DNA of 64,000 nucleotides from an uncultured virus (IMG/VR IMGVR_UViG_3300031998_000016) (IMGVR_UViG_3300031998_000016); one strand, 5' to 3'. Shown: positions 32,477 through 63,681, counted from the first letter of the stretch. Notes: generated by a model not told the origin, from the sequence alone. A program made the numbers and translations.

Positions 32477-32819
32477 TTGACCATATATACCTCCATTTGG
32501 AAGACCGCTCAGAAATGGGCGGTTTTCCTTTTATGGTATTACTGGAAAATTGTGGAAAAATGCCCGGGCGATTTTCCAGATTTTACCAATTTCTCCAATT
32601 CTTGATTTCGCCGCCAAATTCTTACATCTCTCCCATATCATGGCAGTCTGGGAATATATGGAATATATGGGAGCTACGAGCAGAGCTGGGAGCTACATCC
32701 ATTAGCTATCCTGCGAAAAAATTTTTTAAAAACGCTTGACAAATGAGCTATGATATGCTATAATATATACATAAGATAAAGACAGGTTATAAGTCTTAAA
32801 AACCGGAAAGGATTTTACT

Positions 32820-33272
32820 ATGAAAAATTTTAACTATCGTGACATTAATGCGGCTATCAAGGCAATTCGTGCGGCTTTTGAAGAATTTGCTTCAAAGAAC
32901 TATAAGACAACTCACTATGACTGCTACACTAACTGGAAGACAAATACTGTTACGTTAGTACGTGTCAACAGTCGTGGCGTAAAAAGCTGGGAAGCTAAGA
33001 CGCATCCAAATGATACATTTTATGAAGAAATTGGTGTAGCACTGGTAATGCTGAGAGCAATGGGAATCCAGCAAATTCCACCATGTTTCAATGGAAAATG
33101 GATAAAAGCGGAAGACCTTCAGATTGGAGAAGAATTTGTAACTTATGGCAGATTTGGTGCTCACCGCCATGTTGCAAATGGTCCGGATAAAAATGGTGAT
33201 ATTATCTATGATGACGATAAGACAACTGGTGGATATAATATCATGAGAGCCGATGCTTTTGTAATGATTTAA
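32820..33272 (+). CDS. Hypothetical early protein
   Basis: HPNDTFYEEIGVALVMLR motif, family with 31342. Confidence 0.75.
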   Translation: MKNFNYRDINAAIKAIRAAFEEFASKNYKTTHYDCYTNWKTNTVTLVRVNSRGVKSWEAKTHPNDTFYEEIGVALVMLRAMGIQQIPPCFNGKWIKAEDLQIGEEFVTYGRFGAHRHVANGPDKNGDIIYDDDKTTGGYNIMRADAFVMI

Positions 33273-33541
33273 GACTTTTTGCCGCTCAGAAATGGGCGGC
33301 ACTTTTGTATAGTAGAATTGGTAAATTTTACCAAATCGCCCGGGCGGTTTTCCAGAAAATGGTAATTCTTCCATATTTCGCCGCGAAAAAAAATTTTTTA
33401 AAAACTTTTAAAAAAGTGTTGACAAACAGACTAAGATGTGCTATAATATAATTACAGGGTAAGGGAAACGACCTAAGCCCTAAGTAAACAATAATTCTAA
33501 AGTCAGGTAACAAGACTATAAAACCGGAAGGACTAATTACC

Positions 33542-34039
33542 ATGAAAAGAAACTCTACACCAAACACACTTAAGTCACTTAACATTGAAGCAATTTTTTC
33601 TCACAGTGAAGACTATCTGTCAACAAAGAAGTCATTGCCAGCTGTTACCAGCGCTCTTAAAGAAGCTATTGACAGCTTAAAGAACATCAGTGAAGATGAT
33701 TATGACAATATTGCCGAATTCTGCCATGATGCTATGACAGCTACAAAGAAGGCAAAGAGAATCAAGAGAAACGAAACATATCTGGAAGAATACACCAAAA
33801 TGTTCCTTGCAAATATGAAAGAGGGTGAGTGGTATTCTAAGAATCTTTTAGCAAGTTTTGCCAACTCTAACATGGCTTTCGCAAAAAAAGATACCAAATT
33901 TGATAACCAGTGCTACGGGCATGACCATATAGTTACTGTATGTATGGACCGCCTTATAAAAGAGGGTAAAGTAATTACTCACCGTGTATATCGTTACGGC
34001 ACAATTTACTCACTTTTACCAACTAAGGAAGATTTCTAA
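33542..34039 (+). CDS. Hypothetical protein, C-terminal winged-helix-like (paralog of 34371)
   Basis: Shared IKRN...YE.Y...L.N...G..Y and MDRL+..G motifs. Confidence 0.7.
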   Translation: MKRNSTPNTLKSLNIEAIFSHSEDYLSTKKSLPAVTSALKEAIDSLKNISEDDYDNIAEFCHDAMTATKKAKRIKRNETYLEEYTKMFLANMKEGEWYSKNLLASFANSNMAFAKKDTKFDNQCYGHDHIVTVCMDRLIKEGKVITHRVYRYGTIYSLLPTKEDF

Positions 34040-34370
34040 TCTTATGGGTTTCTGAGGGATTTCCCACCAAAAAGTCCCATCCCAATATTTTCATACCTCC
34101 GTAGGTTGTTTCTTAAAAGTTTGGACGGTTTATACCGTCCATTCTTTTTTATCCATAAATGGTAATTTCTACCAAAATGCCCGGGCGCTTTGCCAAATCC
34201 TTCCATATTTACCATAAAATAATTTTTAAAAAATTTTAAAAAAACTATTGACAAATGCGCCCCTATATGATATAATATAATTACAGGGTAAGGGAAACGA
34301 CCTAAACCCTAAGAAAACTAATTTACTATCGACAGGTTCAAGTCGTTAAAACCGGAAAGGAATTACCAAT

Positions 34371-34859
34371 ATGTTTACACAGACTTTAGTTGAAACAGAA
34401 AGATTTTCACCAATGGGCTACAGAGCATCTGTAGAATTTAATGACGAAGCTGTAAAGGAAAATCTTTGCAGAGCACTTGCAGCTGTTAATGCGGCTACAG
34501 AAGCTATGGCACAGCTGGACACTTCTGACATTGAAGAGGTTGAAGAAGGTGTTGATGATATTCTTAGAGCTTTAAAAATGGTAAAGCGTGAAAAGACAAC
34601 CATTAAGAGAAATGACCACCGCAAAACTCAGTATGAGGATTATATGGATATTATTCTCAAAAACACAGAAGTTGGCGGCGCATACGTTATGTCACATCTC
34701 ATGGCAGAACTTGGTGAAATGGTAAAGCATGGCGGATACCGTGAAGATTTCGGTTATAATGCAGATATGTTCAGAACAGTCATGGATAGACTGGTAGAAG
34801 TTGGTACATTCAAAGTTACAATGGTTAGCACAATAACAGTATTTACAAGGGAGAAATAA
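34371..34859 (+). CDS. Hypothetical protein, C-terminal winged-helix-like (paralog of 33542)
   Basis: Same shared motifs as 33542; own promoter. Confidence 0.7.
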   Translation: MFTQTLVETERFSPMGYRASVEFNDEAVKENLCRALAAVNAATEAMAQLDTSDIEEVEEGVDDILRALKMVKREKTTIKRNDHRKTQYEDYMDIILKNTEVGGAYVMSHLMAELGEMVKHGGYREDFGYNADMFRTVMDRLVEVGTFKVTMVSTITVFTREK

Positions 34860-35278
34860 TTATGGCAGAAATTAAAAAAGGACTTCATGTTACCAAAAAG
34901 GGAAAACATTACATACTAACAAAGGAGGAGGCAATTGCTTACCTCACCGCCCTCAATGAAAGGGCAAAAGCGAGAAAACAGGCAAAAATTGACATGGGAT
35001 TCACAAAGTAAAACTAAAGTCGCTCAGAAATGGGCGGCTTTTCCATTTACCATTGAGATGGCAATTTCTACCAAAATGCCCGGGCACTTTGCCAAATTTT
35101 TCCAATTATACCATAAAATAATTTTTAAATTTTTTTAGAAAAACTATTGACATTCTAATAAATCTATGCTATAATATATACATAAGGTTGAGGGAAACAA
35201 AAACCTAAAACCTTAAATCATTCATTATTTATATTCATTGTCACGTTCAAGACGTTAAAACGGAAAGGTAGAAAAATT

Positions 35279-35599
35279 ATGACACTTAGAGAATTTTACA
35301 ACGAAGTAGCTACAAATGCATCTATCAGCGCAGAAGCTAAGGAAATTGCTGGCAAGTATCTTGCTAAGTTTGCGGAAGAGGACAAGGCGAAGGATTCTAA
35401 GCGTGAAGCTAATGTTGCACTCGGTGAGGAAATTCTTGCCAAAATGGAAGCTGGTAAGAAGTACCTTAACGCAGATATTGTGGCAATGTTTGCCGGTCAG
35501 TACAACTCGTCAAAGATTGGCTATATCCTTAGAGAAATCTTAAAGGATAAGGTTATTTCAGACGACAGCACACCTAAGCAGTACACAAAAGTAAAGTAA
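35279..35599 (+). CDS. Small basic putative DNA-binding protein (paralog of 37329)
   Basis: MTLREFYNEV vs MTQREFYNAV; NSSK and TP..Y shared. Confidence 0.7.
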   Translation: MTLREFYNEVATNASISAEAKEIAGKYLAKFAEEDKAKDSKREANVALGEEILAKMEAGKKYLNADIVAMFAGQYNSSKIGYILREILKDKVISDDSTPKQYTKVK

Positions 35600-35812
35600 T
35601 AAACACGGCAAAAACTGGAAGCCGCTCTCGAAAGAGGGCGGTTTTCTTATTATGGTAGAACTGGAAAATTTTTCCAAAACGCCCGGGCAATTTGCCATAA
35701 ACTACCAAAAAATTTTTTCAGAAAAGTGTTGACAAGTGCCGCAAAGTATGGTATAATATAATTACAGTAAAGGACAGGTGATAAGTCCTAAAAACCGGAA
35801 AGGAATACCAAT

Positions 35813-36013
35813 ATGGAAAAGTATGAAATCAGATTTATCGGCAAGCCGGAAAATACTTACACTTCACCGCATAGCTATGTAGCTGTAAGAATGTTTACTT
35901 CTTTAATGAATAAAGAACAGAGATGGTTAACCTACTGCCCATTAAAGCGTTTTAGCAATGGGTTCATTGATTCTGTTTCCGTTGGTGATATGACATTAAG
36001 GAGGGTAAAGTAA
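35813..36013 (+). CDS. Hypothetical early protein
   Basis: Own promoter; TAATG coupling to next gene. Confidence 0.65.
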   Translation: MEKYEIRFIGKPENTYTSPHSYVAVRMFTSLMNKEQRWLTYCPLKRFSNGFIDSVSVGDMTLRRVK

Positions 36014-36546
36014 TGAAAACAATAAAAGTTCTTGTATCAACATTAAACAATGGTGATTTCTTTAGTGTAGGTGTTTATGACTACCTTTTTGTAGGTAAAA
36101 CTAAATTCCAAGATGTAAATGGTTATGTTGGTTGTAACCAGTCTAACGGTGATTTAAAAGTTTTTGATTTCGACCAAATGGTGGAAATTCCACGTCCTAA
36201 GCCAGTAAGAACCACTTTTTGGTATAAGAAGAAGTTTTTGGAACTCGTTGGTGGCGGTGTTGAACATGATAAGGTTGAGTTTAAATTTAATACTATTTGT
36301 TCTCGACTTTATGCCGAACTTAAGGTGACAAGATATGGTATATTACAGGAACTTGGCGGAAAATATGGTCGTAATGATTATATTATAACAATTAATAACA
36401 AACTCTTTGACGGTGTTACGGTGATGCTCATAAATACAAAAACTGGTAAATCAGTTTCTTGCAAACATCTCGACCCGGAAAAAATTACCATGGACAATGT
36501 ATACGTTATCTTTATCGACCTTTACAAAAAGTACATGAATCAGTAA
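36013..36546 (+). CDS. Hypothetical protein
   Basis: 177 aa; LINTKTGK motif shared with the 31342 family. Confidence 0.7.
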   Translation: MKTIKVLVSTLNNGDFFSVGVYDYLFVGKTKFQDVNGYVGCNQSNGDLKVFDFDQMVEIPRPKPVRTTFWYKKKFLELVGGGVEHDKVEFKFNTICSRLYAELKVTRYGILQELGGKYGRNDYIITINNKLFDGVTVMLINTKTGKSVSCKHLDPEKITMDNVYVIFIDLYKKYMNQ

Positions 36547-36775
36547 AAATGTGCCGCTCAGAAATGGGCGGCATTTTCATATTCCATAAATGGTAAATTA
36601 TGGCGAAACGCCCGGGCGATTTTCCATCTTTTTCCGTTTTTACCATAAAAATATTTTTAAAAAATTTTAGAAAAACTATTGACAAGTACCTTATTCTATG
36701 CTATAATATATACATAAGATAAAACAAAACACAAAGACAGGTAACAAGTCTATAAAACCGGAAGGAATTTTAACT

Positions 36776-37315
36776 ATGGAAAATCTTACATTTGAAAACT
36801 GGACTCTCTCACAGGCACATTCATTTATCATTGGTATGGCAAATGCAATGGTAAATAGTGGTCAGGCAAGTTTTCCAGTGGATTTTAATGATGTGATGAC
36901 CGAAGTTTACAGAACTTTTGAACATCACGACTACACTGACGAAGGCGCCGACAGCTTTACTTTTGGTAATTATGTGATTACTGTTAACAAGAAGGCACGT
37001 AAAGTAGGTCTTCTCAATACTCGCAATGGTAAGTTTGTGGAAACTTATTGTAACAAAAAGGATAATTTTGCGGTCTTTATTGGACTGGGTGTGGTTTGGG
37101 CTAAGTACAATCATATTGAGCGCCCTAAGTTTATAAGCAAGAAAAAGCTGTCTGAACTCAAACCACATGATGTATTTACAATTAGTAGTGGTTCACGCTA
37201 TGAATTTATCGGCACTATTAAGAGTATAGGTCTTAAAAACAATTATGTAGCTTTTAGCATTGATACTGGAAACACTTACCGTTTTGCAGATGGCGCAGTA
37301 ACGGTAGTAGAATAA
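36776..37315 (+). CDS. Hypothetical early protein (31342 family)
   Basis: KDNFAVFIGLGVVWAKY motif. Confidence 0.75.
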   Translation: MENLTFENWTLSQAHSFIIGMANAMVNSGQASFPVDFNDVMTEVYRTFEHHDYTDEGADSFTFGNYVITVNKKARKVGLLNTRNGKFVETYCNKKDNFAVFIGLGVVWAKYNHIERPKFISKKKLSELKPHDVFTISSGSRYEFIGTIKSIGLKNNYVAFSIDTGNTYRFADGAVTVVE

Positions 37316-37328
37316 GGAGGAAATTACC

Positions 37329-37694
37329 ATGACACAGAGAGAATTTTATAACGCAGTAATAGCCGCAAATCTTAGCGATGAAATCACGGATAAAGCGAAG
37401 GCACTTCTTGCCAGTGTTAACAGTAAAAATGCAAGGTCTGCAAAAAATTCCGAGGAAAAGCGTAACACCAATACAGAAATTGGCAGAAAACTTTTCAGTA
37501 TGCTTGATGTAGGAAAAGCGTACACAATGGATGAAATCTTAGTACAGTATTCGGCAACAGTGTCAGAACTTACCAGTGAATATGACTTCAAGATGAACTC
37601 GTCAAAGTTTACCGCCATTGCAAGAAATTGTCAGGATGCGGGATTTATTGAGATAATAAAAGACACACCAAATAAATACAGATTTATCGGATGA
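37329..37694 (+). CDS. Small putative DNA-binding protein (paralog of 35279)
   Basis: AAGGAGG RBS; similarity to 35279. Confidence 0.7.
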   Translation: MTQREFYNAVIAANLSDEITDKAKALLASVNSKNARSAKNSEEKRNTNTEIGRKLFSMLDVGKAYTMDEILVQYSATVSELTSEYDFKMNSSKFTAIARNCQDAGFIEIIKDTPNKYRFIG

Positions 37695-37886
37695 AAACTG
37701 CCGCTCAGAAATGGGCGGCTTTCCTATTGTGGTAAAATTGGTAAAATTTGGCGTTTCGCCCGGGCGTTTTGGTAGAATATGGAAATAAAAAAATTTTAGA
37801 AAAGAGTTGACAAGTGCGGCGAAATATGATATAATATAAACATAAGGACAGGTGATAAGTCCTAAAAACCGGAAAGGAATACCATT

Positions 37887-38444
37887 ATGAATGAAAAGAT
37901 AAAAGGAATAATTAACAACAACTCACCTCTTGAACTTTTTTTTAGTTTTGGAATGATTTTTAATTTATTTTTCACCGCTATTACTGCCGTTATAGTTGGA
38001 AATATGGAACTTACTGATAATATGTTAGATTTGGCGGTATTTATTATATTTGCTCGCTTTGTAACAACTCATTTTGTTTTTATTTGGTTACTCGGAAATT
38101 TTCCTTTTGATTATGAGGTGGTTAAACCACGTAAACTAACCACACTTGAAAAAGCACAAAAAGTAATTAATAAGGGAGAATACAAAAAGCAATTAAAAAA
38201 AGATAAAGAAGAACTTAAAAGACGTAAGGAGATTTCAAAAACGCTTAAATATATAGAACAAGCAATTATAGCCGAAGCTAAACACGGTAACCGTGAATTT
38301 ACCTTTGACCTCCCTATAGATTACTGTGTAAAAGATGTAGAACTTTATTTACAAAATCATGGTTTTAAAGCAAAAATTGATAATTCTGAAAAAACCTTAG
38401 ACGGTATGTTAAATTTCTGCCATCCATTATACATCAAATGGTAA
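37887..38444 (+). CDS. Membrane protein (2 predicted TM segments)
   Basis: Two N-terminal hydrophobic stretches. Confidence 0.7.
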   Translation: MNEKIKGIINNNSPLELFFSFGMIFNLFFTAITAVIVGNMELTDNMLDLAVFIIFARFVTTHFVFIWLLGNFPFDYEVVKPRKLTTLEKAQKVINKGEYKKQLKKDKEELKRRKEISKTLKYIEQAIIAEAKHGNREFTFDLPIDYCVKDVELYLQNHGFKAKIDNSEKTLDGMLNFCHPLYIKW

Positions 38445-38638
38445 CTTATGCCACCCTTCGGGGTGGTTTCTCTTTATCCCATTATTACCAAAATCTTCCA
38501 AAGTGCCCGGGCATTTTGCCATAAAATACCATAAAAAATTTTTCGTCAACCCCTTGACAACTCGCCGCAAATATGGTATAATATATACATAAGATAAAGA
38601 GAGGTTATAACTCTATAAAACCGGAAGGACTTTTAACC

Positions 38639-38854
38639 ATGAAACTAAGAAGTATTGATTACATCATGATTTTTAGCTGTGCTTTGGCGGCTGGACTGTG
38701 CTACGCTGGTAGTAATTGGTCAGCACCTATGTTTATCCTGTCAAGTTCAATAGGGCTGGTAGATTCTACCAGAAATAAGGTTCTTACAGGAGCTATCATT
38801 AATGGAATTTTCTTGGCACTTAATGTTGCCGTATTTGTACAGAATGTGAGGTAA
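38639..38854 (+). CDS. Small membrane protein
   Basis: Mostly hydrophobic 71 aa; own promoter. Confidence 0.65.
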   Translation: MKLRSIDYIMIFSCALAAGLCYAGSNWSAPMFILSSSIGLVDSTRNKVLTGAIINGIFLALNVAVFVQNVR

Positions 38855-38858
38855 TAGT

Positions 38859-39254
38859 ATGTATATTAAAATATGTAAAGGCGATGCAATAAATTTAAAC
38901 TTCAAAATACTTGAATATAAAATTCCCGATTTTGATGTACTTGCCGGAAACAAAGTTAACGAGGTAGAGGAGGTAATAAATTTAATTGCTGAGTGTGGCT
39001 ATCCCTTTAAAATAATAGGACTTTCAGAAAAGGAAAGAAACTATTTAGTTAAGTATTTCCACGACTATTTCACCGAAACGGATGCAGATTATGGTATTCT
39101 TGCTAAATGTTTAGATATTCCATATAAATATGAATGGTATGTTACTTCTGAGAATGATAATGTAGAACATATAGCAGATTACTTAGAACATGAGAAAAGT
39201 ATGGTTATTTGGGCGGAAAAGTGTATTGAGTTTCTTGAAGAAAAGGAGTCGTAA
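38859..39254 (+). CDS. Hypothetical protein
   Basis: GAGGT RBS. Confidence 0.65.
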   Translation: MYIKICKGDAINLNFKILEYKIPDFDVLAGNKVNEVEEVINLIAECGYPFKIIGLSEKERNYLVKYFHDYFTETDADYGILAKCLDIPYKYEWYVTSENDNVEHIADYLEHEKSMVIWAEKCIEFLEEKES

Positions 39255-39255
39255 A

Positions 39256-39462
39256 ATGAAAGAAATATACATAGTAAACGTTATGGGTTGTTCCACTTGT
39301 GCATACACTGAATATTCCTCCGCACTTAAAGACGTTTTGTCAACAATTGCAGATTTGACAGGTGAATCATATACAGGAAGCACAGAAAAAGAACTATATG
39401 AGTATCTTGATGATAATTGTGATGTAGCAAGTCTTGAAGCACTTGATTTATACGATAATTAA
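39256..39462 (+). CDS. Hypothetical acidic protein
   Basis: AAGGAG RBS before ATG 39256. Confidence 0.6.
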   Translation: MKEIYIVNVMGCSTCAYTEYSSALKDVLSTIADLTGESYTGSTEKELYEYLDDNCDVASLEALDLYDN

Positions 39463-39712
39463 TCTATGCCGCCCTTTGGGGCGGTTTCCTTTTATACCAT
39501 TACTGGAAAATTATGGCGAATCGCCCGGGCGCTTTTCCAGATTTTTCCATTTCTACCATAAAAAACTTTTTTAAAAAATTTTTCTAAAACTATTGACAAT
39601 AGCACAAAGTTGTGCTATAATATATACATAAGGTGAAGGGAAGAAAACACCTAAAAACCATATTATCATTATTGTCAGGTAAAGACGTTAAAACCGGAAG
39701 GAAGTAATTAAA

Positions 39713-40138
39713 ATGACAGAACTTAGAACTATCAAGGAAAAGGACTTCAAACTCAGTGAAATCAAGGAAGCTATCAGAGTGGAAGCTTTTGACAGTGTTG
39801 TTGAAGCTATGAAGGCTAAGTACGGTGAGGAAAATGTTACCATCGTTGGCAAGTCTGAGGTAGCTGTAGCTGTTCTCACAATTGAAACAAAGGAAGGATT
39901 TACCGTTGAAGCGTGCGTAACATTCTCCCCTACTGTCAAGGACTATAAGGACAGACAGACAAACAAAAAGTATTTTACAGAATATGACAGGGAATATGAG
40001 GGTAGCGTATGGCAGAAAAAGGTAGAGGAAGACGAGAAGGAAGCTAAGGAAAAGGAAGAAAAAGCCAAAAAGAACAAAGAAAAGGTAGAAAAGGAAAAAG
40101 CGGCGGCGAAGGCAAAAAAGGAAGCTAAGACAAATTAA
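39713..40138 (+). CDS. Hypothetical protein with Lys/Glu-rich tail
   Basis: Own promoter, strong codon bias, terminator-like hairpin. Confidence 0.75.
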   Translation: MTELRTIKEKDFKLSEIKEAIRVEAFDSVVEAMKAKYGEENVTIVGKSEVAVAVLTIETKEGFTVEACVTFSPTVKDYKDRQTNKKYFTEYDREYEGSVWQKKVEEDEKEAKEKEEKAKKNKEKVEKEKAAAKAKKEAKTN

Positions 40139-40353
40139 TCCAGCGAGGGTTGAACTTCGGTTCAGCCCTCTTTTATTTTTATCCAAAACTGGAAAATTTT
40201 GGCAAAATGCCCGGGCACTTTTCCAGCATTTTCCAATTATGGAAAAATAATATTTTTAAAAATCTCTTGACAAGTGCCGCAAAATGTGATATAATATATA
40301 CATAATAAATCGACAGGTTACAAGTCGTTAAAACCGGAAAGGAATACCAAAAA

Positions 40354-41079
40354 ATGCGTGGAAGAAAAAAGGAAAAATTTATAGTATTAGACGTGGAAGG
40401 AAATTCCACTTGTCTGCCGTACAATATTGGTTATATTGTGGCAGATAATGCCGGCAATATTTACGAAAAAAGGTCAATTGCATTACCTTATGCAGTTTGG
40501 CAGAATCTGTTAAATTCCCTCGAAACTGGTCTGTGTAAAGAAATGCACTTAAAGAACACAAAAGATATTTTAGAGGATTATGAGAATTCTGCTAAAAACA
40601 GGAAGTACAGATGTATAAGCATTGAGAGTTTTTGGATATTATTTACATCTGATATTCAGAAGTACAACATTAAAAAGATGTATGCTTATAACGTTGCCTT
40701 CGATAATGCCGCACTTAGTAGGTTATTTGGTGCAAGGTATGAAATGTTAGGACTGGAAATTCGTGACATCATGGCGGCAGTAGTAAAGACTCGACTGTTA
40801 AATCCTTCCTATTTGGAATTTTGTGACCGTCATGGTTATTTGTCAGAAAAAGGTAATTATAAGTACGGTGCTGAAATAGTGTACCGATATTTGAAGGGCG
40901 AAGCATATGCCAATTTTGAGGAAGAACATACAGGACTTGCCGATGTTATGATAGAATATGAAATTTTGTTATGGGTTCTCAAATCTGGTAAAAAACAGGA
41001 ATGGTCATGCATTTGCGCTTGGAAAAGATTTCAGCAATATGTGGAAGAAACTGGATACCAAAGATGGTTGCCATTTTAA
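40354..41079 (+). CDS. DEDDh (DnaQ-like) 3'-5' exonuclease
   Basis: ExoI IVLDVEG, ExoII AYNVAFD, ExoIII EEHTGLADV. Confidence 0.85.
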   Translation: MRGRKKEKFIVLDVEGNSTCLPYNIGYIVADNAGNIYEKRSIALPYAVWQNLLNSLETGLCKEMHLKNTKDILEDYENSAKNRKYRCISIESFWILFTSDIQKYNIKKMYAYNVAFDNAALSRLFGARYEMLGLEIRDIMAAVVKTRLLNPSYLEFCDRHGYLSEKGNYKYGAEIVYRYLKGEAYANFEEEHTGLADVMIEYEILLWVLKSGKKQEWSCICAWKRFQQYVEETGYQRWLPF

Positions 41080-41287
41080 TGGTAAAGGCGGTAGTTTTCG
41101 GAAGAAGGCTACCGCCCCCATTTTTATGGTAGAACTGGAAAATTTTGGCGAAACGCCCGGGCATTTTGGCATTTAATGGCAGAAAAAATTTTTTAAAAAG
41201 GTATTGACATTACCGCAAAACTATGTTATAATATATACATAAGATAAAGAGAGGTTATAACTCTATAAAACCGGAAAGGAATTAACC

Positions 41288-41512
41288 ATGATAACTGATG
41301 TGCCTATGAAAGCTAATTCAGAAACGATTTTACAATTACAGGAGCAGATTAAAATTTTAAAACGTAATTTGCATTTAATGTGTAAGTTTGGTCCTTGGGA
41401 AGATTGTGGCGATTGTCCTTGCTATGATACAGTTAGTGAAAAATATAACTGTATGATACAAAGTGCCGGCTTAGGTTCGCCAATTCTTTGGAAGAAAGGA
41501 AAAGATTTTTAA
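41288..41512 (+). CDS. Small Cys-rich protein
   Basis: C...CGDCPC...C; own promoter. Confidence 0.6.
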   Translation: MITDVPMKANSETILQLQEQIKILKRNLHLMCKFGPWEDCGDCPCYDTVSEKYNCMIQSAGLGSPILWKKGKDF

Positions 41513-41626
41513 TGGATAAAAGATTTAAAACAAAAATAACTATTGACATTGCCGCGATTATGTGCTATAATATATACATAAGATAAAGACAGGTTATAAG
41601 TCTTAAAAACCGGAAAGGATTTTACT

Positions 41627-41866
41627 ATGAAATTAGATTTTAAGAAAAAGGAAATGACTGGAACAGAAATGGCTATTGGTTGCTTAATTATTTTAGTTGT
41701 CATTGCTCTTACTTATGGTTGTACAGTTCTTATGGTGGGACTTGCTATGTGGTCACTCTGTAAGTTGGGAATTATTGCCGTATGGACGTGGAAACAGGCG
41801 GCATTATGGGCAATTGTTTTGGCAGTTGTTGGTAGTTTCTTTAAGAGTGGTAAAAAGGAGGATTAA
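41627..41866 (+). CDS. Small membrane protein
   Basis: Long hydrophobic segments; own promoter. Confidence 0.7.
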   Translation: MKLDFKKKEMTGTEMAIGCLIILVVIALTYGCTVLMVGLAMWSLCKLGIIAVWTWKQAALWAIVLAVVGSFFKSGKKED

Positions 41867-41869
41867 GTT

Positions 41870-42238
41870 ATGGATAAAAGATTTGAAATATATCCCGTTA
41901 TAGGCATATGGTATTGGGAATCTATGGTAATGGAAGAAATGGGATATGGTAAATATGTAGATTCTCGTAATATATTTGATTGGGATGACTTTTTTGAGGA
42001 AAAAGGTATTGAACACTTTACGGATAGGCATTATCTTGAAAATGTTCTTATTAACTCCGATGATGGTGAAGATTTTGCATATATTGACCGCTCAGGTTAC
42101 ATTGATAAGGGTTATTGTAACGAAAGGTTAGAATATGGTGAAAAAGTTGTTGATATTAAAGAGGAAATTTTTTCTGCGGCAGTAAGACTGTTTGATAAAG
42201 GTTTAGCACCAAAAGAATTTATAGTTCTTTACCGTTAA
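41870..42238 (+). CDS. Hypothetical acidic protein
   Basis: AAGGAGG RBS. Confidence 0.7.
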   Translation: MDKRFEIYPVIGIWYWESMVMEEMGYGKYVDSRNIFDWDDFFEEKGIEHFTDRHYLENVLINSDDGEDFAYIDRSGYIDKGYCNERLEYGEKVVDIKEEIFSAAVRLFDKGLAPKEFIVLYR

Positions 42239-42703
42239 TAAGAAGAATAGAAGAAATAAATTAATTGATAAATTAGAGGATGAAAAGAAAAATGGATGGT
42301 CGTTTTGAATTTTTTGAAAATTATTATGACTTAGAGCATAATCCCGAAACTATGTTTACACTTTTGTACTTTATGGCAAAAGAAATAGAATCTTTACGGC
42401 ATGAACTAAATGAGTTGCGAAGTGACACTGACTTTGAAGAAGAATAAAAGCGCCGCCCGAAAGGGCGGTTTTCTTATATTCCATAATTGGTAAAAATTGG
42501 CGAAACGCCCGGGCACTTTTCCAGTAATTTCCATATCTACCATATTTTCGCGGCGAAAAAATTTTTAAAAAACTATTGACAACTGCCCGCAAATATGGTA
42601 TAATATAATTACAGTAAGGGAGGGATTAAATGACCGCCTTAATACTAATAGGTTTAACTATGATTGCCGGAATTTTGGCAATCGACTAAGAAAGGACTAA
42701 ATT

Positions 42704-43147
42704 ATGGAAAAAGAAATAGTATTTGACATGGACGGCACTCTTAACAATTTTTATGAAGTTGAGGGCTGGCTGGAAGATTTAAGAAATTATTCTGTACGAC
42801 CTTATAAAGATGCGAAGGCAAGGCTCAATCTGTCAAGACTTGCCAAACTTCTCAATAAGTTACAGAAGGATTTAGATTTCACTCTTAAAATCGTTTCATG
42901 GTGTTCAAAGGAAAGTACACCGGAATTTGACAGACGTACAAAAGATGCCAAACTCCAGTGGCTCAGGAAACATATGCCATCTGTAGAATGGGATGAAATC
43001 CTTATTGTACCATACGGCACGCCTAAACACTCTTTAGGCGAAGGCATACTCTTTGACGATAACGAAGAGATTAGAAAAGAATGGGGCAAAGGTGCATACT
43101 CAGAAAAGGAAATCTTTGACATACTCAATGCGATTTTAAGAATGTGA
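42704..43147 (+). CDS. HAD-superfamily phosphatase, 5'(3')-deoxyribonucleotidase-like
   Basis: Motif I VFDMDGTL, K..WL..H, motif IV ILFDD. Confidence 0.8.
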   Translation: MEKEIVFDMDGTLNNFYEVEGWLEDLRNYSVRPYKDAKARLNLSRLAKLLNKLQKDLDFTLKIVSWCSKESTPEFDRRTKDAKLQWLRKHMPSVEWDEILIVPYGTPKHSLGEGILFDDNEEIRKEWGKGAYSEKEIFDILNAILRM

Positions 43148-43551
43148 GGTGGGAGAATATGGAAGGCATAATAGAAGAAGACTGGATAGAATCAGAAGAA
43201 ATGGAATATCTCGGAAAAAGTTTTTGGGAAGAAGGCTTTTATGATAAAAGCGGTAAGAAAATGGAAACAATGGAAGTTCTTGCCGCACTCTTTAAAAAGA
43301 CTATTCAATTAGAAAAGCGAATAGAACAGTTAGAGGAAGAAAATGCCATTTTGAGAGATATTGGTATGTTCGACCTTGACAAAGGACAGGATATTCTCCA
43401 TAATATAACACTTATAAATGGAATTAAATGGAAAAGGGACACTAAATTTACAATTGATAGTGAAAATTGTAATTTTTCTTGTCTTTTATATTATATAAGT
43501 CAATGCATATCAGACAAAAAGTCAGAAGATGAACTCGAAGGATATTATTGA
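43144..43551 (+). CDS. Hypothetical protein
   Basis: Acidic ORF following the HAD gene. Confidence 0.6.
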   Translation: MRWENMEGIIEEDWIESEEMEYLGKSFWEEGFYDKSGKKMETMEVLAALFKKTIQLEKRIEQLEEENAILRDIGMFDLDKGQDILHNITLINGIKWKRDTKFTIDSENCNFSCLLYYISQCISDKKSEDELEGYY

Positions 43552-43745
43552 TAATTTATGCCGCCCGAAAGGGCGGTTTCTTTATATACCAAAACTGGAA
43601 AATTTTGGCGAAACGCCCGGGCAGTTTACCATATTTTGGCGGCGAAAATTTTTTAGAAAAACACTTGACAAACATCATAAACTATGGTATAATATAAACA
43701 TAGATGGAGAGGTGATAACTCCTAAAAACCGGAAAGGATAACCAT

Positions 43746-44117
43746 ATGGTAAAGAATTGTAAATTTAAGTGTGATGACTTTGAAACAGGTTCATTGACAG
43801 AAATGGTGGGTTATATTTTAAGTCAGTGTGATGCTGAAGGAATTATAGCAACTTGGTATTATTTAACCCCTACTATGCCTTGTCTTGTCGCAGAAATTAA
43901 CAACGAAGATAAAATACTTGGTAGTTTCCGCTTAGGTGATTTACTTCTTATGCATCAAAATCACGTACTTTCGGAAGAAATATACAATACAGCTTATGCA
44001 TTTGTTGATAACTATTTAATAGATGAATTACACAGAGCATATAACAGACATGAAGAAATGATAATTACATCAGTAGGCATAAATGATTTTCACATCAACT
44101 TAATATGGGAGGACTAA
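43746..44117 (+). CDS. Hypothetical early protein
   Basis: Own promoter and leader. Confidence 0.7.
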   Translation: MVKNCKFKCDDFETGSLTEMVGYILSQCDAEGIIATWYYLTPTMPCLVAEINNEDKILGSFRLGDLLLMHQNHVLSEEIYNTAYAFVDNYLIDELHRAYNRHEEMIITSVGINDFHINLIWED

Positions 44118-44119
44118 TT

Positions 44120-44632
44120 ATGTATTTTACAATTAACAATTATGTAACAAAAGAGGATGAAAAGATACATACCAAAAGAGGTGCAATAGTAAGAATAAAT
44201 GAACTTCTTACTAACAAAGATATGGCAATCGCTAAACAAATTGTCGAAAACACCATCAACCGCCCTCATGCAGTAACATTTGATAACTTTGCTATACGCT
44301 GTGTAAAAGAATATGAAATAGAAGGTATTGAAGAACAGCTTTTTGAACTTGATGAACTAACGGACGCAATTTTTTATACTGACCAAGATTTAACATTTAA
44401 AATGGCAATAGAATGGTTTGAAAGTACCACTTATGCCAAGGATATGAACGACAATCCACTTGGAATAAATTGGAGAACCATAGTAAAGCGAGATTATGAC
44501 CACGCAACCTTTAACTATGAATATTCTGACAATCTTGTTAATTTGTACATTGATTCCGTAATGTATAAATTTTCCTTAATGTCATCGGGAGATATAGGAA
44601 TATATAACGATTTGAAAATTATTTGCCATTAA
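44120..44632 (+). CDS. Hypothetical protein
   Basis: GGAGG RBS. Confidence 0.7.
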   Translation: MYFTINNYVTKEDEKIHTKRGAIVRINELLTNKDMAIAKQIVENTINRPHAVTFDNFAIRCVKEYEIEGIEEQLFELDELTDAIFYTDQDLTFKMAIEWFESTTYAKDMNDNPLGINWRTIVKRDYDHATFNYEYSDNLVNLYIDSVMYKFSLMSSGDIGIYNDLKIICH

Positions 44633-44835
44633 TTACCCGCCCTTTGGGGCGGTTCCCTTTTATGGTAGAAATGGTAATTTTTGCCTTTTCGCCCGGGCAC
44701 TTTGCCATTAAATACCATAAAAAATTTTTTAGAAAAACTATTGACAAACACTATATTCTATGTTATAATATATACATAAGATAAAACAAAACATGAACAG
44801 GTTCAAGTTCTAAAAACCGGAAAGGAATTACCATT

Positions 44836-56625: not shown

Positions 56626-58314
56626 TTATCTATATCTTACTGGTGGAAGATTTGACTGGGACTGCTTCTGAGTCTTTGACTTCTGCTTTGGAGCGTTCTG
56701 TCTGTTCTCAATTTCATCCCACTTTGCAATGAAGTCTGCGGCGAAGCTTACTTCCTTACCTGTCCATCCGGAGAGGATAGCAGTTCTGTAAGAGTATTCT
56801 GGTAAGATGACGTTATCGTAGCCAGCAGTCTGTACCATGAAAACATTCACTTTTGGGTTTACTGTTCTACGGTATTCCTGAACTAACTTGTAAACATCAA
56901 TGTAACCAGTACGGTATTCAGCTTCGAAGCCCTTGTCACGGTACTTTCTTCTCTGCTCTGGTGTGCCGTAAAGACAACCGTGACCAGCCTGCATATCAGA
57001 GAAGATAAAGATGTTATCATAGAACTCCTTGTTGTCGATTGCGTTGATTAAGAATTCCCAAATACCACCTTCTGTGCTCTTACCAATATCAGAACCCTTT
57101 GTTTCATTAACCTTCTGAGCCTGGATTAAGCAACCGTTTCTCTTTGAGATTGGGTAAGTCTTTAACTTGTCACCGAACTTACCAACAACACCATCATCTG
57201 AAAGCTTTGCAGCAATTACAGCAGAAAGGTTGTCGATTTCGGCAACAGTAACTGTACCATACTCTGATGTGATACCGCCCCAAGCAGAACCGCTGTTATC
57301 AGATAAGCACATTGTCTTACCCTTTAACTTTGGCATATTGTCAAGAGCAATATCCATACATTCTTCAAGAGTGTCAAGGATTAATGACTTGTAGCTAACG
57401 TCTGCCTTTTCGATAACACCCATTGCTGTGTAGTATCTGAACGGGAACTGCTTGCCGCGAAGTACGCCATCCTTTAACTTCTTAAGGTATCTCTTAGCAA
57501 AGTTAACGTCTATCTGTTCTGAGAATACGTTTCTGAGGTTTCTTAAAAGAGCCATGTGACCCATGTTTGTTGTGTTGAAGATTTCCTTCCAACCCATACC
57601 TCTTGAACGTTTCTGTTCCCAAGTTTCGTCTGAATCTGAAACTTCAAGTCTATCATTAAGGAGTGCATCTAACACTGGAGAATTTGCGTGTGTAAGACGA
57701 ACTGCATTAATCATACCGATTTCAGCGTTCTTGTACTTGTTAACAGCGTATGTGTCGAGCTTTGAAAGCTTATCAGCAATGCTTCTCTTAAGAACTGATG
57801 GAAGCTTAGACTTGCCGCCATTCTTATAGATGTAGTATGCTAACTGAGTTGCTGGTTCATCAGCTCTAGCCATTACCTTATCATTGATTGCCGCGAAAAC
57901 ACCAGGGTTTTCAGAAGTGAACTTTGCTCTGTCTCTGTGGATTGCGGCACGAACCATGATTACCTGTGGGTTTAATCTCATGTTGTAAGTGTCACGAAGT
58001 TCTGCGGCAAATTCAAGTGTTGCACCGAAATCATAGGCAAGTGCGTCGTCGATTACCTGTTCAAAGATTTCTGTAGTTGTCTGACCAACATACTCCCCGA
58101 ACATGATGTCTAAACCTCTAAGCGCACGGTCGATTTCATATCTACGTTCCTTTACATTTGAACGGTAATAAGATGGTTCACCAAAGATTGATGATGCTGC
58201 AACCAACTTAAGAGTATCAAGTGGGTTAACTGTATAAGACTTGCCGCCCATAAAGTTTACTGTTGTGTTCTTTATCTTGTTTTCTGCCTTAATTTCTCTA
58301 GCTATTCTGCTCAT
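56626..58314 (-). CDS. TROVE-domain RNA-binding protein (Ro60/Rsr-like) with C-terminal vWA domain
   Basis: 562 aa; N.MGG..Y N-terminus, TWEQKRS, MGHMALLRNLRN, QFPFRYY, MIDAS-like SDNSGSA and FSDMQ. Confidence 0.88.
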   Translation of the reverse strand: MSRIAREIKAENKIKNTTVNFMGGKSYTVNPLDTLKLVAASSIFGEPSYYRSNVKERRYEIDRALRGLDIMFGEYVGQTTTEIFEQVIDDALAYDFGATLEFAAELRDTYNMRLNPQVIMVRAAIHRDRAKFTSENPGVFAAINDKVMARADEPATQLAYYIYKNGGKSKLPSVLKRSIADKLSKLDTYAVNKYKNAEIGMINAVRLTHANSPVLDALLNDRLEVSDSDETWEQKRSRGMGWKEIFNTTNMGHMALLRNLRNVFSEQIDVNFAKRYLKKLKDGVLRGKQFPFRYYTAMGVIEKADVSYKSLILDTLEECMDIALDNMPKLKGKTMCLSDNSGSAWGGITSEYGTVTVAEIDNLSAVIAAKLSDDGVVGKFGDKLKTYPISKRNGCLIQAQKVNETKGSDIGKSTEGGIWEFLINAIDNKEFYDNIFIFSDMQAGHGCLYGTPEQRRKYRDKGFEAEYRTGYIDVYKLVQEYRRTVNPKVNVFMVQTAGYDNVILPEYSYRTAILSGWTGKEVSFAADFIAKWDEIENRQNAPKQKSKTQKQSQSNLPPVRYR

Positions 58315-63078: not shown

Positions 63079-63681
63079 ATCTTGAAAACCTAATAAAAAA
63101 TACATTGTTGGTTTTTGTTCGCCATACTCCTACAACGCTACGCATTATTCAGCCACAGTGACAATAAGTCTGAGCCTTAAAGCCGTCGCTCTAAAGCTTC
63201 TTACCGCAGTTCCGAAGAACCCAAGCACTGAGAGGATTTGTTTACCTCCAACTTTCACCCATCATTCAGATTAATTTCCTTAAATTATTCTAGAATTAAT
63301 CGAGCCTTGGGCTACTCGCACCACCATCGGGTTTATTCCAGCTTTTTCAAGCTGTTCTCGGCTCAACTCCATTATTTTGCGTTCCCAGCATTTACTCACA
63401 TCTTGCGGATGTGGTCTACGGGGTTATTCTCTCACAGAGAGCGTCTATTGTTGGAGCAACCAGTTTAGGTGTGCCATTGCTCACGTTGTCCTTGTGCCGC
63501 GACTTCTCTCTTGATGGCTGGTATACCATCTTGTTCCTCAGCCTTCCGACATCAGAAAAGAAACCCTGTCAAGGTATCCCTTGACCCGACCTCTCAGCAG
63601 TTCCATCGCGCCCATGCAGAGATGATTAATCCCTCATTTTAACACATGGTTACAACATACTTTTTATTAAGTTTTCAAGAT
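63079..63681 (-). ncRNA. ROOL-like large structured ncRNA (~600 nt)
   Basis: Long terminal helix ATCTTGAAAACTTAATAAAAA / TTTTTATTAGGTTTTCAAGAT; internal ACAATAGACGCTC..GAGAATAA, CGAGTAGC, CTGAATG..GTGAAAGTT, GCTGAATAA segments as I recall from ROOL RNAs; embedded in tRNA array. Confidence 0.8.

Follow-up and report, generated by a model that had tools for sequence, protein, structure and literature searches.

A multicopy leader with a predicted pseudoknot before early genes of an uncultured rumen phage, and its relatives upstream of phage scaffold genes

Structured RNA leaders upstream of GP20, the old name of PF06810, are represented in Rfam by GP20-a (RF02991) and GP20-b (RF03003), and in 2023 six candidate structured RNAs at most 25 nt upstream of GP20 were reported from IMG/VR gut phages (DNAVirus_56, _3400, _5891, _6837, _7012 and _8070, which the Figure 5 legend gives as _80; PMC10690425). 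The passages on these candidates treat GP20 as a gene of unknown function and mention no function for the RNAs, no loop-tail pseudoknot and no multicopy use before genes other than GP20; nor does GP20 appear in the main text of Weinberg 2017, to which they trace the two Rfam motifs. The literature searched, a review of the SPP1 genome included, contained no account of a pseudoknot leader upstream of early or scaffold genes of phages. Here, a related leader module is described from the uncultured virus IMGVR_UViG_3300031998_000016, in a stretch of 64,000 nt (the window; positions are counted from its first letter), where it precedes 14 genes taken to be early from their promoter type and gene content.

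Other described RNAs resemble the module in fold or in position. PreQ1-I riboswitches have a minimal H-type pseudoknot topology, in which a C at the 3' end of the loop pairs with the ligand. Autogenous operators of the T4 gene 32 type precede the gene of their own binding protein; analogies for an operator are control by T4 RegA or gp32 and, in P22, a scaffold protein that regulates its own synthesis post-transcriptionally. The repZ pseudoknot of plasmid ColIb-P9 is long-range (~100 nt), is triggered by leader-peptide termination and competes with an antisense RNA (PMC4705826). On the hbs mRNA of Bacillus subtilis, a strong Shine-Dalgarno site with its initiating ribosomes is a barrier to RNase J1 (PMC5737220), and an aprE 5' stem-loop and a polypurine 5' stabiliser appear among the titles cited in PMC3997798.

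Predicted pseudoknot leaders of the large phage

The window corresponds to the reverse strand of an IMG/VR virus record of 77.5 kb (G000), whose completeness is estimated at 43%. Its close relatives are G001, a 180.6-kb record with terminal repeats and a rating of complete, G002, a fragment of 47.9 kb, and G006, a 180-kb contig that was binned into the metagenome-assembled genome (MAG) of a yak-rumen Eubacterium. The DNA runs containing the stretch carry the label bovine gut metagenome, and the source is an uncultured rumen phage of ~180 kb.

An earlier reading made from the sequence only (the sequence-only reading) had placed a multicopy leader before 14 genes, and 14 copies were indeed found between 32779 and 44818, all on the + strand, each before a start codon and downstream of a consensus TTGACA-17-TATAAT promoter. 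Each copy consists of stem 1 (4–5 bp), a loop of 7–9 nt that starts A-GGU and ends AA, the stem return, an A-rich linker of 4–5 nt (ending in four A's in the general description of the 14 leaders) and ACC. GGAA(A)GG follows the ACC, the purine-rich ribosome-binding site begins 0–3 nt past it, and the start codon lies 17–22 nt beyond it. The leaders measure 40–100 nt from the inferred transcription start and contain no upstream open reading frame (ORF); a promoter scan of the array showed no antisense promoter on the − strand. The copies are listed below as stem 1 / loop / stem 1 return / linker / tail triplet.

Copy 1: 32779..32804 (+), AAGAC / AGGTTATAA / GTCTT / AAAA / ACC, Shine-Dalgarno sequence GGAAAGGA next; start 32820 (150-aa ORFan); promoter 32736
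Copy 2: 33501..33525 (+), AGTC / AGGTAACAA / GACT / ATAAA / ACC; start 33542; promoter 33419; extra 5'-terminal hairpin
Copy 3: 34330..34353 (+), CGAC / AGGTTCAA / GTCG / TTAAA / ACC; start 34371; promoter 34248; extra 5'-terminal hairpin
Copy 4, compensatory variant: 35239..35262 (+), TGTC / ACGTTCAA / GACG / TTAAA / ACG; start 35279 (106 aa)
Copy 5: 35771..35796 (+), AGGAC / AGGTGATAA / GTCCT / AAAA / ACC; start 35813; promoter 35729
Copy 6: 36735..36759 (+), AGAC / AGGTAACAA / GTCT / ATAAA / ACC; start 36776; promoter 36679
Copy 7: 37845..37870 (+), AGGAC / AGGTGATAA / GTCCT / AAAA / ACC; start 37887; promoter 37807
Copy 8: 38598..38622 (+), AGAG / AGGTTATAA / CTCT / ATAAA / ACC; start 38639; promoter 38554
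Copy 9: 39673..39695 (+), TGTC / AGGTAAA / GACG / TTAAA / ACC, shortest loop (7 nt); start 39713; promoter 39593; extra upstream hairpin
Copy 10: 40311..40335 (+), CGAC / AGGTTACAA / GTCG / TTAAA / ACC; start 40354 (241 aa, phrog_20187); promoter 40267
Copy 11: 41248..41272 (+), AGAG / AGGTTATAA / CTCT / ATAAA / ACC; start 41288; promoter 41204
Copy 12: 41586..41611 (+), AAGAC / AGGTTATAA / GTCTT / AAAA / ACC; start 41627; promoter 41543; aligned stretch identical to copy 1
Copy 13: 43706..43730 (+), GGAG / AGGTGATAA / CTCC / TAAAA / ACC; start 43746; promoter 43665
Copy 14: 44795..44818 (+), GAAC / AGGTTCAA / GTTC / TAAAA / ACC; start 44836; promoter 44741

The genes behind the 14 copies are different ORFans, and only the one at 40354 has a PHROG, of unknown function. 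The tail motif AAAACNGGAARG was matched 26 times at ≤1 mismatch, compared with 4.03 matches expected (standard deviation 2.1, maximum 10; none of 100 shuffles reached 26). Thirteen exact + strand matches and the 1-mismatch copy at 35257 belong to the array, and the other 12 are scattered and are not copies. Across the whole 77.5-kb record the motif had 13 exact matches, on a single strand, and the reversed control had 0.

All eight stem-1 pairings given by the sequence-only reading were present (full tally: AAGAC/GTCTT twice, AGTC/GACT, CGAC/GTCG twice, AGGAC/GTCCT twice, AGAC/GTCT, AGAG/CTCT twice, GGAG/CTCC, GAAC/GTTC, and TGTC/GACG, with a T-G pair, twice). For the 14 window copies (13 distinct), 90.4% of cells were paired vs. 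75.8% in shuffled alignments (0 of 500 shuffles reached the observed value), the covariation score was 0.455 vs. 0.128 in shuffles, and double changes occurred in 4 of the 5 stem pairs; sliding the 3' partner by 1–3 columns left only 28–49% paired. A covariance model (R1) built from these copies found 61 copies in four related genomes (14, 16, 16 and 15), 50 of them distinct. The four stem-1 pairs were paired in all 50, with 32, 1, 17 and 7 double changes, none of 500 shuffles matched the observed pairing or covariation score, and slid registers fell far below. Covariation in a larger alignment had been named beforehand as a test of the element, and for stem 1 it was strong. UG pairs in stem 1 numbered 6 in the 50-copy set and 27 in the set of scaffold-gene leaders described below; because stem-1 G-U pairs occur in the sense orientation only (they are C-A mismatches on the other strand), the structure is that of RNA of the coding strand, and a DNA-level palindrome or protein site was ruled out on the same ground. 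RNAfold z-scores of the 13 folded window leaders ranged from -1.5 to +1.1. As the hairpin is thus thermodynamically unremarkable, folding energy was dropped as evidence, and structural support comes from covariation.

Loop GGT and the ACC past the A-rich linker are complementary in 13 of the 14 window copies; the sequence-only reading had noted this complement, and had also claimed for the copy at 35239 a matching change that proved correct (loop ACGT, tail AAAACGG). GGU/ACC was unchanged in 47 of the 50 distinct copies, and CGU stood with ACG in 3 of 50. The CGT/ACG change is shared by the orthologous gene in G001 and probably in G006 too, each with a different stem 1. Since two carriers precede orthologous genes, and the third probably does likewise, CGU/ACG in this family counts as one evolutionary event, and it was retained while stem 1, the remaining loop and the ribosome-binding site diverged. 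Three copies without the U (loop AGGA) have two G-C pairs left. Loop A10 and the last two loop A's were nearly invariant in the 50 distinct copies, 49 of which end the loop in AA. Taken alone, the evidence for the pseudoknot inside the phage family is suggestive only.

Relatives upstream of scaffold genes

Pattern scans of viral contigs recovered the same letters in unrelated phages of 30–46 kb (loop C-AGGU-(R)AA, G-U-A-run, ACCGGA; also written AGGU...AAAACCGGA). In these the stem is longer (5–6 bp) and richer in G+C, and the motif always stands just upstream of one gene, which encodes an SPP1 gp11-like head-scaffold protein (Pfam PF06810 at E ~1e-40). Among 136 pattern matches, 29 were non-jumbo, had stems of 5 bp or more and preceded an ORF of 206–214 aa with a scaffold N-terminus; ten further matches with such a stem lack a scaffold ORF and look like chance. 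A motif-independent set was then formed from loci fetched by scaffold-protein homology (23 viral and 54 metagenome, 77 in all). Stem 1 covaries in these leaders as well (e.g. CGAGG, CGUGG, CGCGG and GCUGG with matching returns), pair 8-32 of the core set being AU in 18, UA in 16 and CG in 3, and the core is invariant at 25 of 44 columns.

The evidence for the second helix comes from distant scaffold leaders, in which the triplets have changed and still match: CGU/ACG (three further lineages), CCU/AGG, CGC/GCG, AGA/UCU (also in Clostridium phage phiCT9441A), ACU/AGU, the extended CGGU/ACCG, ACG/CGU (Brevibacillus phage Jimmer1), CGUU/AACG (Streptococcus phage Javan308), GUU/AAC (Staphylococcus phage 55) and CAU/AUG (Fusobacterium phage FNU_1P), with a weak UGU/ACA in SPP1 and Ray17. 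Where the A-run ends, 11 of 14 lineage representatives have an anchored Watson-Crick complement of 3 bp, as do 8 of 11 when the three GGT/ACC representatives are left out (P ~1e-5, loop shuffling). An automatic scan of the 77 loci gave 35 distinct leaders, 31 with hairpin and A-run, of which 21 were flagged as pseudoknots vs. ~3.7 expected, a figure that is inflated by the relatedness of the leaders and is therefore not to be read as a probability. These alignments support an H-type pseudoknot well, with compensatory changes that arose independently in relatives as the backing for its second helix, and the pseudoknot is taken as real. A clear loop-tail complement was not found in Listeria A118, phiCD24-1, TVCOM_ph1, L208, L258, L262 or L257, and the leader of SPP1 gene 11 was set aside as a clean member and treated as weak (RNAfold prefers another hairpin, and its GP20-a score is low). 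The single Escherichia coli relative examined, JenP2, has no module in 31 nt of leader sequence. The module is so far restricted to phages of Firmicutes and Fusobacterium.

In small tailed phages the module stands where portal or minor head genes give way to those for the scaffold and the major capsid protein, often just after a terminator-like hairpin. Several loci carry further elements at this place.

L425 (Staphylococcus 55), L427 (Lactobacillus jlb1), L429 (Streptococcus Javan308) and L426 (Listeria A118): terminator-like hairpin and T-run, 40–90 nt before the scaffold start; the hairpin loop contains GTCGTTAAAC-like letters and resembles the loop of the pseudoknot hairpin that follows (GCGTTG or TCGTTG)
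L265:231-301 (+): tandem hairpin and A-run modules before one scaffold gene, the second with a CAU/AUG complement
L270:373-404 (SPP1, upstream of gene 11): tRNA-like T-arm with a weak match to the tmRNA model (13.8 bits, E 0.033), ~60 nt before the leader hairpin

The terminator-like and pseudoknot hairpins may form one larger element. Searches elsewhere added little: a 4-kb stretch gave no match to cultured-phage DNA, and a 39-nt scaffold-type motif gave chance hits only (E = 7). A pattern scan of bacterial genomes returned at least 124 stretches; among the matches listed, those other than the 180-kb phage contig of the Eubacterium MAG had no stem or no ORF and are probably chance matches. 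A sample of 401 genomes from the class of the Eubacterium MAG did not contain the exact scaffold-type pattern, which is not evidence of absence.

On the motif, no Rfam family reached its cut-off, whether in a gathering search of the whole window or in searches at E ≤ 10 of stretches of 12.5 kb, 2.5 kb, 55 nt and 61 nt, none of which matched GP20-b. With the GP20-b model searched directly against five records, none exceeded the 36.2-bit cut-off (9.8 and 8.2 bits in G000, 11.5 in G001, 8.7 in G003), and control genomes scored at the same level; the positive controls Jimmer1 (40.3), L269 (42.4) and TVCOM_ph1 (40 bits) were above it. GP20-a (cut-off 47.2 bits) had no match on G000 or G001 at E ≤ 10, and the SPP1-like Ray17 matched it weakly (22.4 bits). 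The 3' half of GP20-b nevertheless has the design of the module, i.e. a hairpin of at least 4 bp, an 8-nt loop, U and A-run and a short complement of the loop, and the succession of hairpin, A-run and loop complement is present in 14 of 14 window copies; both stand directly before the ribosome-binding site in Firmicute phages. GP20-b members in the present set are the metagenome locus L269 (CGC/GCG), Jimmer1 and Terrisporobacter phage TVCOM_ph1 (no loop-tail complement by eye). They differ in an extra first hairpin with a conserved loop; of the 14 window leaders, 9 have no first hairpin and the other 5 have a different one, and the window copies precede 14 ORFans rather than the GP20 gene, which only the small-phage AGGU relatives precede.

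The sequence-only reading had proposed a candidate new cis-regulatory RNA and had named a search of Rfam and phage genomes as a check. What stands is a structured cis leader on the sense strand that reaches no Rfam cut-off; it is not an isolated class, as its core is the 3' half of GP20-b and the same module was found in GP20-b and scaffold-gene leaders. Because it scores at noise level with both GP20 Rfam models, the AGGU/ACC form is a new sequence form of an already known kind of leader, perhaps overlapping the 2023 candidates. These share with the present leaders the IMG/VR source and the position before GP20 and were reported from gut phages assigned to Lachnoclostridium, Gemmiger and Veillonella (PMC10690425), and from the passages describing them the AGGU-loop scaffold leaders of gut metagenomes may well be among them. 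New are the 14–16 module copies per genome in a phage without a detectable GP20 gene, the scaffold-protein profile having no match at E ≤ 1 in the complete relative G001 or the incomplete G000.

These comparisons bear on the proposal of the sequence-only reading that the element is a variant riboswitch. A small riboswitch or ion sensor of preQ1-I-like fold, in which a ligand would stabilise the 3-bp second helix and gate translation by host state, is very improbable and the least likely of the readings considered here. The preQ1-I-like topology that was claimed is present (a stem of 4–6 bp, a short loop, an A-rich third strand, and helix 2 ending 0–3 nt before the ribosome-binding site), the second helix is probably too short for stability alone, and unpaired positions are well conserved in the core groups. 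The lack of the preQ1-pairing C was also stated correctly: the loop ends AA in 14 of 14 window copies, an A replacing the ligand-pairing C of preQ1-I. No PreQ1 or other riboswitch model matched at E ≤ 10, even on 55–61 nt, the queuosine gene context is missing, and the second helix does not cover the ribosome-binding site. The triplets and most loop letters vary, and the wider family has no unpaired position that is always kept. No metabolic theme links the genes behind the module, which are ORFans and a capsid scaffold, and 14–16 copies per genome are unlike any known riboswitch use, so that this part of the earlier proposal is weak.

The early array and its surroundings

Short transcription units are arrayed on the + strand from ~22.3 to 45.7 kb in the order terminator, GCCCGGGC-centred palindrome, A/T tract, TTGACA-17-TATAAT promoter, leader and 1–3 small genes, with 27 promoters of this type and 29 palindromes. 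The inverted repeat (~26 bp, TGGCAAAA-GCCCGGGC-TTTTGCCA-like; 29 sites, window 22336–45690, +) sits 60–90 bp upstream of almost all early promoters, in units with and without the pseudoknot leader alike, and looks like an operator for a single DNA-binding regulator of the whole early array. The 14 pseudoknot leaders form one block (32.7–44.8 kb). Thirteen promoters of the same type lack the module, 12 upstream (23.4–32.1 kb) and one inside the block at 42576, all with other leaders, which often carry a 5'-terminal hairpin with a purine-rich loop. A descriptor of the module recovered 14 of 14 copies and gave one A/T-rich false match among the 13 other leaders. The module is copied along with the early promoter cassette in a ~180-kb phage family and heads 14–16 units of unrelated ORFans.

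For 19 of the 21 proteins of the studied part, nothing was matched at the thresholds applied; the motif-headed gene 40354–41079 (241 aa) matched phrog_20187, and the sole functional assignment, 5'-nucleotidase-like, lies behind the one motif-free promoter of the stretch. Two metatranscriptome runs contain small parts of the region as assembled contigs, which give no 5' ends, strand or levels. The features observed beside the pseudoknot leaders were as follows.

42576–43147 (+): promoter, short leader, 19-codon hydrophobic ORF, then a 5'-deoxyribonucleotidase-like protein, the sole early protein with a predicted function
35279–35599 and 37329–37694 (+): early ORFans that start alike (MTLREFYNEV... 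vs. MTQREFYNAV..., read by eye, unaligned), so that the array contains paralogous genes besides paralogous leaders
28526, 29119, 30583, 31251, 32069, 33419 and 34248, with variants at 35147 and 39593: leaders with a second repeated element, a hairpin 2–4 nt past the inferred transcription start (ACAGGGTAAGGGAAAC...) with a purine-rich loop, predicted in minimum-free-energy folds; alone in the upstream block, combined with the pseudoknot in 5 of 14 leaders
39594–39662: hairpin of the second element that gave the noise-level GP20-b match of 9.8 bits
56626–64000 (−): ROOL RNA at 63090–63673 (293 bits) and 14 tRNA matches, adjoining a 562-aa TROVE (Ro60-like) protein at 56626–58314

The TROVE protein may act in RNA quality control, and in this phage it is encoded next to a large ornate RNA and a bank of tRNAs.

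The early units fall into two blocks that share a promoter type and differ in their leaders, which would suit an operator. Control by a trans-acting phage or host RNA-binding protein that recognises the folded leader (loop AGGU, the A-run and ACCGGA) is rather unlikely; it would switch translation of one class of early mRNAs off or on in the large phage and tune scaffold synthesis in the small ones. The strong conservation of unpaired letters in the core groups (loop A10, the last A's, 25 of 44 core columns) and the tie to the scaffold gene only in small phages agree with such an operator. The same letters, however, occur in unrelated phages before unrelated gene classes, including a late structural gene, and loop and tail vary without further constraint in the wider family so long as they remain complementary. 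A Pfam scan of the 64 window proteins recognised no RNA-binding regulator, the only RNA-related match being the TROVE/Ro60-like protein. In contrast to an autogenous operator of the T4 gene 32 type, the window leader precedes 14 unrelated genes. No PF06810-type scaffold protein was detectable in the large phage, where the scaffold profile had no match, and on this ground scaffold autoregulation was ruled out as the mechanism common to both settings.

Possible role as a cis-acting block

The tentatively favoured explanation is a cis-acting expression and stability cap that would boost the yield of the downstream gene. Of the functions proposed in the sequence-only reading, the enhancer and the 5'-exonuclease block would fit best. 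The knot would act in cis and need no gene-specific protein. With its A-rich strand lying along stem 1, it would be a compact block bordering the ribosome-binding region on its 5' side, and by tying up the upstream letters the knot would leave the ribosome-binding site single-stranded. Knot and initiating ribosome together would keep 5'-to-3' exonucleases, in such hosts RNase J, from degrading the mRNA, and the outcome would be a high, context-independent yield of any gene placed behind it. The 14–16 copies per genome in a phage with no detectable GP20 gene argue against scaffold-specific control and against a riboswitch. The homes of the module, i.e. early units with consensus promoters and the step-up from portal to scaffold and capsid genes, fit high-output genes, and an architecture that is kept across a wide family in which the letters are not fits a physical role.

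Both parts of this explanation have precedents. As in ColIb-P9 repZ, the loop pairs just upstream of the ribosome-binding site (here ACC, 0–3 nt before it), and the plasmid knot keeps the initiation region open and thereby promotes translation (PMC4705826); the phage module differs in being local (~25 nt), the window copies lack a leader peptide, and an antisense partner was not seen. The 5' stabilisers of B. subtilis, by the cited accounts, likewise place a structure or a ribosome near the 5' end to shield the mRNA from RNase J1, and 5 of the 14 window leaders have such a 5'-terminal hairpin; they are simple hairpins or ribosome sites, and no pseudoknot was found in the portions of the RNase J1 stabiliser literature covered (PMC5737220; PMC3997798).

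Several observations weigh against a self-sufficient block. The hairpin is weak (z-scores near zero) and the 3-bp second helix would be marginal alone, so the knot may need an ion, protein or ribosome partner. Loop AGGU, the linker and ACCGGA are conserved beyond the needs of pairing in core groups whose scaffold proteins are only 47–55% identical, as would be expected from a sequence-specific partner. The two leader blocks behind one promoter type look like two post-transcriptional classes, i.e. regulation. Finally, small tailed phages show the module only before the scaffold gene and not before other abundant proteins, which could be simple vertical inheritance or gene-specific control.

The position of the knot also suits a ribosome-docking element, in which it would bind the 30S platform or stack on the Shine-Dalgarno helix as a strict translational enhancer with no role in decay. 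In the window copies and the core scaffold leaders the ribosome-binding site begins 0–3 nt past helix 2, and 17–22 nt separate the knot from the start codon, which would place it where the 5' edge of an initiating 30S subunit lies; ColIb-P9 is a precedent (PMC4705826). Such docking is nonetheless quite improbable: the distance from knot to ribosome-binding site runs from 2 to ~17 nt in divergent members, so a fixed stacking geometry is not general. Pairing of loop AGGU with 16S rRNA as an auxiliary, second Shine-Dalgarno sequence was ruled out by the loop variants CGU, CCU, CGC, AGA and CAU with their matching tails, and a CsrA-type binding site by loops that lack GGA and vary.

A more far-reaching reading would make the knot a bacterial counterpart of the flavivirus exonuclease-resistant RNAs, a ~25-nt fold that alone halts RNase J and serves Firmicute phages as a portable stability and expression cassette, once before the scaffold-capsid genes of small phages and 14–16 times before early genes of the large one; this is unlikely. 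If it were true, the knot would be the first natural RNase-J-blocking RNA fold and an insulator part for Gram-positive synthetic biology.

GP20-a, GP20-b and their newer relatives, which the texts covered catalogue without a function, gain from the window a common structural core backed by covariation, namely a hairpin with a loop that pairs immediately beyond an A-run. It also offers a natural experiment, the module standing away from the scaffold gene in 14–16 copies before unrelated genes; this detachment narrows its function to a generic role in expression. Relatives of the module are carried by culturable phages of Bacillus, Staphylococcus, Streptococcus, Brevibacillus and Clostridium (the SPP1 gene 11 case being weak), where it can be tested at the bench. 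If the idea of a decay block is true, the module would be a new kind of mRNA-stabilising fold for bacteria that use RNase J.

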